A DNA stretch of 64,000 bases from Parabacteroides sp. (GCA_028689545.1 JAQVCX010000007.1:881-64880), one strand, 5' to 3'. Shown: positions 1,123 through 55,630, numbered from the stretch's first letter. Notes: generated by a model from the letters alone, not told the origin. Numbers and translations are program-made.

Positions 1123-1442
1123 AATGGACTGATTTCGCGATTCAAAACCTTAATGAAATCGGAGATTATATAGAGAAGGAGAGCTATACCTCGTATGCCT
1201 CCCGAGTTGTAAGTGGATTGTTTGCGGCGGTAGATGTCTTAGAACGTTTTCCTTTGGCCGGACGTATGGTTCCGGAGTTTCAAGATACGGCTATAAGAGA
1301 GCTTATCCGAATGAATCATTATCGGATTGTTTACAGAGTGGTTAATGAGAGCCGAATAGATATTTTAACTGTTCACCATTCGGCTCGTATTTTACATACA
1401 TCTATATTAACAATGAGCTATCCCCATAACTCAAGAACCTGA
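1110..1442 (+). CDS. ParE/RelE-family type II toxin
   Basis: '[18 protein letters not shown]...[13 protein letters not shown]...[16 protein letters not shown]...[11 protein letters not shown]' is a ParE-family pattern. Confidence 0.85.
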
Positions 1443-3481: not shown

Positions 3482-4783
3482 TTAGTAGGGTTTAATATTC
3501 GTTATTGTCATCATACCTGATGTATATAAGAATGATCCGGAAGTATAGGCACTTGTCGTTGTGACTAAATAGTAGCCATTGCTTGATCCATTCCATCCTA
3601 AATTAAAATATAGATAATAATTTGTTCCCGTTTCCCCTGTATAACTTTCTTCCGTCGGGCTATTGGGGCACTCTCTAACCATTTTTTCCGCCCAATCTTT
3701 TGTTTGATATCCTTCGACGACCCATGCATGTCCAACTCCTCCTGTACGAATACCTCTCATATATACAGGTCTGTTTGAATCCAGATCTGTTTTTACCTTT
3801 GAGAAATTGTAAGAACTAATTAGCATATTTGTATTATATCCCATTAAGGTAAAGGCTTCATAAGCGGAATATATATTAGAGCCACTACCGTCACATCCAT
3901 AGGACATAGAGCATTTGTCTCCTATTTCTGCTAATAAGTTAGCGACTTGCGATCTATATGTATTGTTTGTTAAATTCCTTGCGTTGGCAACAGATTTTAT
4001 TCCTGTCCAATTGTAGGAGGTATTTCTTGTTTTCATGTTTACTGGATGTATGTAACTACCAGAAGTTGGTTTCTGATGATGTGCCATGATTTGTGCGATG
4101 GCGATAGCGACACATCCTGCAGGATCTTTTTGTGATGTGCTAACGCATGTAGGCAGGCTATCGTTATAAGGAGATGGGCTTTGTCCCCATGTAAGGTTCA
4201 TCGCACACTTTTTAGTGGTTGTTTTTATTATTTCATCGAAAAGTCCTGTATCGCAAGGGTCATCAGCCGCTGTCAAATCTGTTTGAAACTCGTTGATTGA
4301 CTTACTTATGAAATTGTCTGTTTGCTCGAAGAATATATGTTCGAATTCGGGTAAACCGGACATATCCCACATGCCGGAGTCGGAAAAAGCCAAGACTTTT
4401 CCTAAGGCTCTCCTATCTCCAACTTTGACAACAAAACCTTTCTTATCCCCTGTTTGGGTTTTGAAATTGATGATGTAAACAGGAATATTTTCAAAAGCCT
4501 CATTTGTGTTTAAGTAGGTAATTTGTTGTTGGTTTTGTATTGAGATTGGACGGTAAACAGTTTGAACCTCTGGAATAAGGCTGTCTGTTTGCGATTTCGT
4601 AATGGCAACTTGACCATTTAGGAATAACTTGGCGGATGTGATGGCTTCTTGCTCTCCGATTATGTTTTCGTTCATTTGTTCGTTTGCAAGGTTCTTGTTG
4701 TTCTCCCCGTGATTCATGTTATCGCAGGACATACCAAGCCCGCAAAACAGTACTACAGAAAGGAAAAGAATCTGTTTTTTCAT
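3482..4783 (-). CDS. C10-family (streptopain-like) cysteine protease, lipoprotein, with Spi/I69-like prodomain
   Basis: Lipobox 'GMSC'; prodomain 'VYIINF...GFVVKVGDRR...KVLAFSDSG'; 'TWGQ', catalytic Cys in 'PAGCVAIAIAQIM', His in 'GHAWVVEGY', and 'YFNLGWNG'. Confidence 0.92.
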   Translation of the reverse strand: MKKQILFLSVVLFCGLGMSCDNMNHGENNKNLANEQMNENIIGEQEAITSAKLFLNGQVAITKSQTDSLIPEVQTVYRPISIQNQQQITYLNTNEAFENIPVYIINFKTQTGDKKGFVVKVGDRRALGKVLAFSDSGMWDMSGLPEFEHIFFEQTDNFISKSINEFQTDLTAADDPCDTGLFDEIIKTTTKKCAMNLTWGQSPSPYNDSLPTCVSTSQKDPAGCVAIAIAQIMAHHQKPTSGSYIHPVNMKTRNTSYNWTGIKSVANARNLTNNTYRSQVANLLAEIGDKCSMSYGCDGSGSNIYSAYEAFTLMGYNTNMLISSYNFSKVKTDLDSNRPVYMRGIRTGGVGHAWVVEGYQTKDWAEKMVRECPNSPTEESYTGETGTNYYLYFNLGWNGSSNGYYLVTTTSAYTSGSFLYTSGMMTITNIKPY

Positions 4784-53896: not shown

Positions 53897-53958
53897 CGGC
53901 GTTATTCGCTGAATTATTATTACTTTTGACGCATATTCGAATAAAGGAGAATAAATAT

Positions 53959-54420
53959 ATGAACGCAAATATAGCAAAGGTTCAATCCCTCATCGAGAAC
54001 GCTTTTACGTCGGCTATCGAAAAGCTGACCAAGGATGAGTCCGGTAATTTTATAAGCGACTTATACGTGCAGGTCGATGCGGAAAGCGGAGAGCTGCAAA
54101 TCTATGATGACGAGGAAAAGCTGATCGAAAAGATCATTATCTTCGATTGGGTGAACTCGAACGAGGAGGAAGATGTATTCAATAAGCGGGTTGCCGCTTC
54201 GGTTAAGGCGGTTCTTACGATCTTATCCACCAAGAATGTTTTTGACGCTCCCCGGTTTATGAAACCTCTTTCCGTTAGCTTGACTGACGAGGATTTCGTT
54301 GTTATAGAAGAGCTTATCTTTATAGACGATGATATGCTTCGTTTGGACGATCCTCTATTGAATGATTTAGATGCAGATTTAGATGATTTTTTAGCGAATC
54401 TTCTTGCAGATGTCAAATAA
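53959..54420 (+). CDS. Conserved acidic hypothetical protein
   Basis: Open frame with an acidic C-terminus. The track's TTG (53926) is inside the TACTTTTG box (53921-53928); ATG 53959 is preferred. Confidence 0.7.
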   Translation: MNANIAKVQSLIENAFTSAIEKLTKDESGNFISDLYVQVDAESGELQIYDDEEKLIEKIIIFDWVNSNEEEDVFNKRVAASVKAVLTILSTKNVFDAPRFMKPLSVSLTDEDFVVIEELIFIDDDMLRLDDPLLNDLDADLDDFLANLLADVK

Positions 54421-54459: not shown

Positions 54460-54532
<73 letters not shown>

Positions 54533-54538
54533 CACGAT

Positions 54539-54573
54539 AAAAGGCAGTTATCTAAAAGGTAGCTGCCTTTTTT
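54539..54573 (+). terminator. Terminator after tRNA-Thr
   Basis: AAAAGGCAGTTATCT...AGGTAGCTGCCTTTTTT. Confidence 0.85.
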
Positions 54574-54633
54574 GTTATTCTCCCAGCCCGAACGTATTCT
54601 AAACAAATAAAAAGTTCTTATTACTTGCACGAT

Positions 54634-54655
54634 ATACATATGTGTATTATATTTG
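54634..54655 (+). promoter_or_regulatory. Cassette promoter with a candidate operator
   Basis: TATATTTG at 54648-54655, immediately preceded by ATACA-N4-TGTAT (54634-54647). Confidence 0.55.
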
Positions 54656-54671
54656 TAGTGTCAGTTAAACA

Positions 54672-54851
54672 ATGATGAACCAAGAACAAGAGCTAAAGGC
54701 TCAGATAAAACAAGTGGACAGAAATCTATTGTTTTATTCTTCTTATTGGAATCTTTTGCAAGAACAGGGGATACGGAAAGAAGAACTCTTCAGAAGGTTA
54801 GATGTTTTGTTAGACAAGCGTTTATCTTTGACAAAAGAGTTGAAAGGTTAA
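54672..54851 (+). CDS. 59-aa hypothetical helical protein (absent from the ORF track)
   Basis: MMNQEQELKAQIKQVDRNLLFYSSYWNLLQEQGIRKEELFRRLDVLLDKRLSLTKELKG*; starts 16 nt after a consensus -7 box and fills the space before the next gene. Confidence 0.7.
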   Translation: MMNQEQELKAQIKQVDRNLLFYSSYWNLLQEQGIRKEELFRRLDVLLDKRLSLTKELKG

Positions 54852-54909
54852 TCAAGCTCCCCCTTAGTGGGGGAGCAAACTGACTAATTTTCATCAAAAA
54901 GGAGGTAAT

Positions 54910-55347
54910 ATGGCTGATTATGAGGAGTTGAAAAAAGAGTTTCTTTCACAACGGACAGAGTTTCGTCAATCTGAAGAGATTGACGAAAGTGCTTTCCAGG
55001 AACGTATAAGGCAATATTTGGCCACGAAAACGCCGGAAGAAGCTCAGATGTTAGCTGATATCATGCTGGAGTGCGTGAATGAAGATATTGAAAAGACAGA
55101 CGATTTAATCCATGAGGCTCGGTTAAGAAAGGTATTGTCAAAAGTTTATGATGCGGTTTCATGGTCTTATATTGCTAAGGCTTATTTTGGAAAAAGCCGT
55201 TCCTGGCTGAATCAGCGTTTGAATAGTTTTATTGTAAATGGGAAAGAGGCTCAATTTACTCAGGAGGAATTAAAGCAGTTACAAAGAGCTCTGCTGGACC
55301 TTAGTGGAGATATAAAGAATACCGCTCTTGAATTGGGCGTTCATTGA
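54910..55347 (+). CDS. DUF5053-like protein (C-terminal HTH-like domain)
   Basis: 'VSWSYIAKAYFGKSRSWLNQRLN...VNGKEAQFT.EEL' matches the DUF5053 pattern as I recall it; acidic N-terminus. Confidence 0.75.
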   Translation: MADYEELKKEFLSQRTEFRQSEEIDESAFQERIRQYLATKTPEEAQMLADIMLECVNEDIEKTDDLIHEARLRKVLSKVYDAVSWSYIAKAYFGKSRSWLNQRLNSFIVNGKEAQFTQEELKQLQRALLDLSGDIKNTALELGVH

Positions 55348-55370
55348 TAACTGACATTATCAAATCGGGG

Positions 55371-55402
55371 AAGGCTTGGCTGTTTGTCAAGCCTTTTCTT
55401 TG
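55371..55402 (+). terminator. Terminator of the two-gene cassette
   Basis: AAGGCTTGGC-TGTTT-GTCAAGCCTT followed by TTCTTTG. Confidence 0.8.
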
Positions 55403-55556
55403 TACGATATAGGCGGCTGACATTTCCAGTGATTTTATATCTATAAGGAAGCCGGACGGGGCCAAGGTGGTTTCCGACCCGGATTGATATGCTATAAAAT
55501 AACATAGGCGGCAACCCTTGCGGATTGTCGCCTAATTGTTTATTGTTGTTAATTCG

Positions 55557-55630
55557 TGGAGCATATCGGACTCGAACCGATCACCTACAGACTGCCAGTC
55601 TGTCGCTCTAGCCAGATGAGCTAATGCCCC
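55557..55630 (-). tRNA. tRNA-Ala(GGC)
   Basis: GGGGCAT/ATGCTCC acceptor stem with G3-U70, anticodon loop CTGGCAG, GGTTCGAGTCC. Confidence 0.97.

Follow-up and report, generated by a model that had tools for sequence, protein, structure and literature searches.

What is the compact two-gene unit that lies between a tRNA-Thr and a tRNA-Ala gene of Parabacteroides sp., and why is its leader complementary to the bases that directly follow its second stop codon? We analyzed this unit within a stretch of 64,000 nucleotides (hereafter the window), for which a sequence-only reading had proposed a toxin-antitoxin-like module made of an unlisted 59-aa ORF (ORF1) and a gene for a DUF5053 protein. On direct reading, every coordinate given for a feature of this cassette proved correct, and the cassette is indeed self-contained, with its own promoter box, two genes, and a terminator. 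Its features, in window coordinates, are as follows.

54460-54533, plus strand: tRNA-Thr, left flank of the cassette
54634-54647, unstranded: palindrome ATACA-N4-TGTAT, adjoining the -7 box; candidate operator
54648-54655, plus strand: -7 promoter box TATATTTG, of the Bacteroidota TAnnTTTG type
54656-54667, plus strand: leader TAGTGTCAGTTA, 5' arm of the end-to-end helix; probably transcribed over 54659-54667
54659-54661, plus strand: predicted transcription start, placed from the -7 box, 4-6 nt 3' of it
54670-54675, plus strand: CAATGA, 5' arm of helix 2, containing the ORF1 AUG; in the MFE and centroid folds
54672-54851, plus strand: ORF1 (ATG at 54672), gene for the 59-aa helical-hairpin protein, conserved partner of DUF5053
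54856-54863/54869-54876, plus strand: perfect 8-bp intercistronic GC hairpin with loop TTAGT and no T-run after it
54878-54884, plus strand: AACTGAC, intercistronic copy of the 3' arm; clade-specific
54901-54905, plus strand: GGAGG, 5 nt upstream of the DUF5053 ATG
54910-55347, plus strand: gene for the 145-aa DUF5053 protein (Pfam PF16476)
55341-55346, plus strand: TCATTG, 3' arm of helix 2, made of part of the penultimate codon, the last codon CAT, and the TG of the stop
55348-55359, plus strand: TAACTGACATTA, 3' arm of the end-to-end helix, flush with the DUF5053 stop codon
55371-55401, plus strand: intrinsic terminator, an 8-bp stem AAGGCTTG/CAAGCCTT at 55371-55378/55388-55395 and then a T-run
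55400-55476, unstranded: mosaic of phage-like fragments, with pieces common to G008:C37 and G000:C20
55556-55630, minus strand: tRNA-Ala, right flank of the cassette

The tRNA-Thr and tRNA-Ala genes of one congener (G001) are only about 55 bp apart, and a second congener (G008) carries the same cassette, 83% identical over window positions 54632-55362, between a glycosidase gene and a GNAT gene. For these two reasons we consider the cassette an insert. By this comparison it is a relic at the tRNA-Thr/tRNA-Ala site, and we read the mosaic at 55400-55476 as the relic of the element that brought it in. The same cassette occurs in two more Parabacteroides contexts (L027 and L029), and G000:C20 carries a paralogous DUF5053 cassette. 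An Rfam search of this region matched tRNAs only, with no match in the cassette. We also noted a very acidic ORF of 164 aa, without a Pfam match, directly upstream of tRNA-Thr (53926-54420), and a second TAnnTTTG match, TATCTTTG, at 54823-54830, inside the end of ORF1 and about 80 nt upstream of the DUF5053 ATG. This second box may be a chance match because it is kept in G008 but lost in L029, as judged from the protein sequence.

The product of the second gene matched Pfam PF16476 over residues 73-141 with 100.7 bits (E=3.7e-29; gathering cut-off 26.6). We compiled a set of 143 loci, 141 of them analyzable: 59 from genomes across Bacteroidota, 80 of the 208 on viral contigs, the window itself, and three more from the window's own genome and a related one. 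An ORF of 30-110 aa ends just before DUF5053 in 127/141 loci, and 14/141 have no candidate ORF of this size upstream. A profile of the small ORF matched in 120/141 loci, as a homologous ORF of 45-65 aa in Bacteroidota genomes and viral contigs, and all three DUF5053 genes of the window's own genome have an ORF of 56-59 aa directly upstream. The small ORF, compared among the window, G008, and L029, has a dN/dS of 0.06-0.15. The unlisted ORF is thus borne out as a gene, and its conservation marks it as a real, conserved partner gene of DUF5053. The closest relative of the window cassette, L027, has a 226-nt deletion between EELK-coding microhomologies (L027:2928-3488), which leaves only nine codons of the small ORF, those at its start, joined in frame to DUF5053; the deletion spares the promoter, the leader, and the 3' arm.

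AlphaFold models the 59-aa protein as a two-helix hairpin (pLDDT 95.6) whose structural neighbors are generic only. The protein is charged and hydrophilic, lacks a hydrophobic stretch, and is modelled as soluble. The DUF5053 protein was modelled with a pLDDT of 91.6. Neither protein has a significant relative in Foldseek searches of PDB and BFVD or in sequence and profile searches of PDB, neither has a meaningful match in PADLOC, NCBIfam, or PHROGs, and a full-text literature search found no paper on DUF5053. The label HTH-like given earlier to DUF5053 is weakly supported: its C-terminal ~60 residues have weak matches to XRE, CUT, and lambda-repressor-type domains, but a significant structural relative was not among the results. 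We suggest that DUF5053 is probably a DNA-binding protein that acts on the promoter palindrome. The small protein is a dedicated partner of DUF5053, and the analysis thereby defines an unnamed small-protein partner for this family.

How do the two ends of the predicted transcript relate to each other? TAGTGTCAGTTA and TAACTGACATTA form 11 Watson-Crick pairs and one G-U pair. This 12-nt complementarity, already pointed out from the sequence, is real (p=0.005 when the 35 nt downstream of the stop are shuffled 200 times) and is conserved family-wide, as described below. The 64-kb window contains the 9-mer TAACTGACA three times where 0.27 would be expected, two of these copies being the arms. The 7-mer alone is unremarkable in the 64-kb window (7 versus 4.3 expected), with 3/7 occurrences inside the 730-nt cassette unit. 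The predicted transcript (54659-55402) folds with z=-6.85, and its MFE and centroid structures are both closed by UGUCAGUUA/UAACUGACA. A second helix, overlooked in the sequence-only reading, joins CAAUGA (54670-54675) to UCAUUG (55341-55346) and thereby sets the ORF1 AUG against CAU, the final DUF5053 codon, with the UG of the stop also included. Helix 2 is retained in G008 (CGAUGA) and L029 (UAAUGA) through G-U and U-G wobbles, and in L030 the helix extends across the stop codon; the full-length MFE of G008 itself is not closed end to end. In the window's clade, the modelled leader/3' pairing also covers the first start codon.

We assembled 46 non-redundant cassettes with a recognizable -7 box and, in each of them, aligned the first 30 nt downstream of the box with the reverse-complemented stretch of 35 nt that follows the DUF5053 stop, using 200 shuffles. 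Complementarity reached p<=0.05 in 30/46 cassettes and p<=0.01 in 24-26/46, whereas each of five control windows gave only 1-2/46; these were the 3' window in the same sense, the final 35 nt of the CDS, positions +61 to +95 post-stop, a window inside the CDS, and the intergenic region. Restricted windows and positional controls were used since duplex energies over wide windows, compared across loci, are a poor control: GC-rich terminators pair with anything. Arm sequences differ widely among loci, for example, among L074 (16 perfect pairs), L128 (20 pairs, one mismatch), L050 (17 pairs, one G-U), L056, L100, and L030 (arms TGTGTTCA/TGAACACA). Covariation of leader and 3' end across collected DUF5053 loci, which the earlier reading had set as a test, was found: throughout the DUF5053 cassette family, the arms change in a compensatory fashion and keep their pairing.

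The 5' arm begins 1-5 nt after the -7 box (mode 4), and the 3' arm begins <=4 nt from the stop in about 25/30 helix loci. In Bacteroides thetaiotaomicron, dRNA-seq gave the -7 consensus TAnnTTTG, and the mapped start lies 4-6 nt after TTTG in 14/15 promoters that we read from the dRNA-seq table (PMC7366714). Given this spacing, the helix would begin at, or within 1-2 bases of, the predicted first nucleotide. The supplement of the same data set, searched for the promoter of a family member, contained none. About one third of the loci are without the helix, and these mostly lack their own terminator or have a 10-13-nt leader. Among the 46 loci, helix and own terminator occur together in 24, with 5 having the terminator only, 6 the helix only, and 11 neither.

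Conservation of the pairing with compensatory changes makes an RNA-level role very likely. One-sided arm changes on the sense strand are of the G-U type in 17 cases versus 9 of the A-C type, a modest wobble bias. In 24/28 loci, the duplex is more stable when formed by the sense strand than by the antisense strand (Wilcoxon p=0.0016, a value that, like the other family statistics, overstates independence because the loci are kin). Some helices have two parts with a one-sided bulge (L101 type). When full-length transcripts of about 700-770 nt were folded, at least 7 of the first 14 nt paired with the post-stop window in 26/46 MFE structures, versus 0/46 once the first 20 nt had been shuffled.

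The same arrangement recurs around other units. For every distinct TAnnTTTG leader of the fetched loci (761 in total), we searched 120-2600 nt downstream for an exact reverse complement of 11 nt or longer. Matches numbered 56, versus 12 for shuffled leaders; 21/56 belong to promoters of the cassette itself, and in about 18 more the complementarity begins at leader position 3-6 and stops directly before a terminator-like element. These clamped units, i.e., units bracketed in this way, include single-gene DUF5053 variants, other cassettes of 450-820 nt, and highly structured units of 190-270 nt. In L099 and L109, an 81-aa DUF5053-only gene has the same 5'-end/pre-terminator complementarity, and L100 (about 1512-2100) and L111 (about 3943-4500) carry reduced or different cargo with the same 5'-end clamp. 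Because unrelated and partly non-coding units are bracketed too, the clamp would be generic in RNA metabolism and not toxin-specific.

The structured units of 190-270 nt form a family found 1-2.5 kb from DUF5053 cassettes, each starting at a -7 box (L087:5471-5664, L093:5531-5730, L074:1145-1337, L067:4520-4785, L072:5517-5785, L107:4918-5142, L108:4301-4550, L134:5682-5870, L151:4944-5137, and L154:5473-5668). Their first bases pair with a segment ahead of a conserved GGCAGCCG, which closes each unit with a stem of 13-28 bp, and an internal GGCGGTTGCC pairs with the GGCAGCCG motif, with co-variation. Most contain short ORFs only, the longest being 13-60 aa. They had no match in Rfam, and MAFFT with RNAalifold did not align their variable closing stems. 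Separately, two segments about 1.7 kb upstream of DUF5053 cassettes, L087:1022-1093 and L093:1029-1100, have sub-threshold matches to the Bacteroidetes FopS sRNA (47.6-49.6 bits; gathering score 56).

At the promoter, the family is enriched for a palindrome that adjoins or overlaps the -7 box; its arm is at least 6 in 26/45 loci, p<=0.05 is reached in 15/45, and its inner positions co-vary. Relatives carry stronger palindromes than the window, e.g., TAATATAC-N4-GTATATTA. The earlier description of ATACA-N4-TGTAT as operator-like is supported at the level of the family but not by the window's own 5+5 copy, which is not significant alone (p=0.37); the enrichment fits a candidate operator. In a subfamily with GTCATTAAGAC leaders, we observed a perfect 8-nt palindrome between the predicted start and the small-ORF ATG, which reads AGAGCTCT in L003, L123, L072, L049, L043, and L132, and GAGATCTC in L115 and L070. 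Since its sequence changes yet stays palindromic, it may be a second operator or an RNA dimerization site.

Between the two genes, the hairpin has dG<=-8 in 37/43 family loci. It is followed by a T-run in 1 locus and by an A-run in 18 (of 43); with A-rich and not T-rich sequence after it, it does not qualify as a standard terminator. G008 and L029 have the same intercistronic AACTGAC; L030 instead has CTTCATGAAC, a different sequence that matches L030's own leader. The 7-nt site is thus present as described and recurs only within the window's clade (L008, L029, and L030), but leader/intergenic complementarity is at background family-wide (2/43 loci), and we rejected a general role for the intercistronic complement on that count.

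The DUF5053 cassette is common in Bacteroidota prophages and also stands alone between housekeeping genes. DUF5053 has 208 viral-contig matches, and prophages of P. gingivalis carry the gene near one end. Housekeeping neighbors include trpC and trpF (L039), transporters, and Ham1; phage and defense neighbors include amidoligase, antirepressor, integrase, KilA-N, Tad2-like, AbiC, HigB, and PIN genes. These neighborhoods and the L027 deletion are compatible with a selfish two-gene module. The L039 cassette (L039:2700-3450), between a trpC-like (IGPS) and a trpF-like (PRAI) gene, has neither its own terminator nor a 3' arm. In L002 (G000:C176), the paralogous cassette is flanked by a direct repeat of ~45 nt (620-690 and 1390-1440, minus strand), which consists of TTGACACC and a terminator hairpin; its upstream copy ends the preceding XRE-type gene.

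What might such an arrangement do? Complementarity of the ends, its fixed position, its conservation with changed sequences, the sense bias, the thermodynamic closure of the folds, and the co-occurrence with a terminator are all observed in silico. We favor, at a probability of roughly 60%, a transcript clamp, in which the mRNA of this autonomous two-gene cassette, a relic insert between tRNAs, closes end to end. The first transcribed bases would pair directly after the second stop codon, beside the terminator hairpin, so that the transcript of roughly 740 nt would close on itself. The clamp would bury the 5' end and might protect the mRNA from decay that starts there. In short-leader versions, including the window, it would bury the ORF1 start codon too, and translation of ORF1 from the finished mRNA would then be poor. 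The clamp would not yet have closed on nascent RNA, and ORF1 may be translated mainly from it. Ribosomes that terminate on DUF5053 would sit on the 3' arm, which might reopen the clamp and make ORF1 translatable. During ongoing transcription in the window's clade, the 5' end could be kept paired by the intercistronic 3'-arm copy. Where leaders are 40-49 nt long, the start codon lies beyond the helix, and translational control cannot be the general role for that reason. The earlier proposal that RNA folding controls the first ORF therefore agrees with the window, where helices 1 and 2 cover the AUG in the predicted fold, but does not extend to long-leader loci, where the start is uncovered. We read the modelled clamp as generic, hiding the 5' end and, in the window, the start codon, and not as a hok-like toxin switch.

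Could the arms instead act as DNA inverted repeats, either as binding sites of the cassette's own protein or as recombination sites of an inverton or terminal-repeat element? Invertible segments are used by Bacteroidales, the repeats enclose precisely the two genes of a cassette found at many sites, and a core TGTCA/TGACA is semi-conserved. However, copies at different sites stay homologous for 24-55 nt beyond the left repeat on its upstream side, where the promoter lies, and in L027 homology continues through the terminator; a flipped segment was seen in 0/69 distinct arrangements. Because homology passes the arms and no copy is flipped, the arms are neither element termini nor an inverton, and both forms were rejected. 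The repeat sequences are also too variable for one recombinase, bulged two-part helices of the L101 type occur, the sense strand pairs better, and the 3' arm goes together with a terminator, so that DNA repeats are a highly improbable explanation. A processing stem is a different matter, since stems of the RNase III type have parallels in rRNA precursors, phage T7 early RNA, and lambda sib. The leader-trailer helix would then trim or destroy the cassette RNA, especially under read-through from an upstream phage promoter. Helices of 12-20 bp do bracket the whole transcription unit, and the 5'/3' UTR duplex of icaR can be an RNase III substrate (PMC3868564; review, PMC7821165). Yet the helix starts at the predicted +1 and not within a longer leader, and many helices are only 9-12 bp, short for RNase III; we think it unlikely that processing is their role.

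The remaining alternative is the toxin-antitoxin module proposed from the sequence, with one toxic protein, DUF5053 as DNA-binding antitoxin and autorepressor, and a 5'/3' fold that silences the toxin mRNA as in hok and aapA1. It would account for a compact two-gene operon with its own promoter and terminator, for promoter palindromes, and for a patchy, selfish-looking spread that includes sites between trpC and trpF and beside defense and toxin-antitoxin genes. The presence of DUF5053 alone in 14/141 loci and the deleted small ORF of L027 fit an antitoxin that survives the loss of its toxin, and the window start codon is sequestered in the predicted fold. Against this, no toxin, antitoxin, or defense model in Pfam, PADLOC, or NCBIfam was matched, and the small protein is a charged, hydrophilic helical hairpin, not a membrane peptide. 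The minus strand of 54540-55560 has no TAnnTTTG box from which an antisense RNA could start. The clamp is also found on non-coding and unrelated units, and long-leader clamps leave the start codon uncovered. Among the defining features of toxin-antitoxin systems that we tested, the cassette has only the operon layout and the predicted RNA fold-back. This part of the sequence-only reading was not supported by our tests, and we regard a toxin-antitoxin module as doubtful.

We therefore return to an mRNA that closes end to end. A bolder extension, which we offer as a long shot, is that phages and mobile elements of Bacteroidota package accessory genes and small RNAs as clamped transcripts, with the +1 nucleotides paired just ahead of the terminator. 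In the coding versions, whose 3' arm directly follows the last stop codon, a ribosome terminating there would open the clamp next to the start codon of the first gene. If true, this would be a prokaryotic closed-loop mRNA, in which termination on the last gene is coupled to initiation on the first gene or to decay from it.

By the complementarity of its ends, the cassette fits, in silico, with mRNAs whose 5' and 3' UTRs interact (hbs, icaR, and RNAIII). In B. subtilis hbs, a 14-bp pairing between 5' UTR and 3' UTR within one mRNA shields the leader from RNase Y (PMC5737220). The helix is of similar length in both, and the 3' arm lies ahead of the terminator in both. However, hbs is one housekeeping gene whose 3' UTR is not conserved in close relatives (PMC7821165), whereas the cassette belongs to a phylum-wide mobile family with co-varying arms that span two genes, and its helix starts at the (predicted) first nucleotide and abuts the stop codon. 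In S. aureus icaR, a 3' UTR motif pairs with the mRNA's own initiation region, which blocks translation and creates an RNase III substrate (PMC3868564). There, the motif is an anti-SD UCCCC in a long 3' UTR, whereas the cassette pairs its very first bases, and only short-leader clades have the start codon covered as well.

The full-length mRNAs of hok and aapA1 are closed by a 5'-3' fold-back that conceals the initiation region (PMC9841398 and PMC6733600). The predicted fold-back of the window likewise covers the 5' end and the AUG, and the intercistronic copy recalls the metastable co-transcriptional partners of those mRNAs. The cassette differs in lacking a hydrophobic toxin, an antisense RNA, or a known 3' trimming step, and in that clamps of its type also surround non-toxin and non-coding units. 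Like phage morons, it is a promoter-gene-terminator unit in accessory regions of prophages, at varying positions, but the moron concept does not include an end-to-end RNA helix. Like acr-aca operons, it has a small gene, then a putative HTH autoregulator, and a promoter with a palindrome; unlike them, its small gene is one conserved family (120/141 loci) and not variable cargo.

A 2021 review of bacterial 3' UTRs discussed three within-mRNA 5'/3' pairings, those of RNAIII, icaR, and hbs; it called the generality of such pairing open and the 3' UTRs involved poorly conserved (PMC7821165). In comparison, the pairing of the DUF5053 cassette is conserved, with co-variation, across a phylum-wide mobile family, and it recurs around neighboring units. 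The family thus offers a natural series of compensatory variants with which to test how end-to-end closure affects the stability and translation of Bacteroidota mRNAs.
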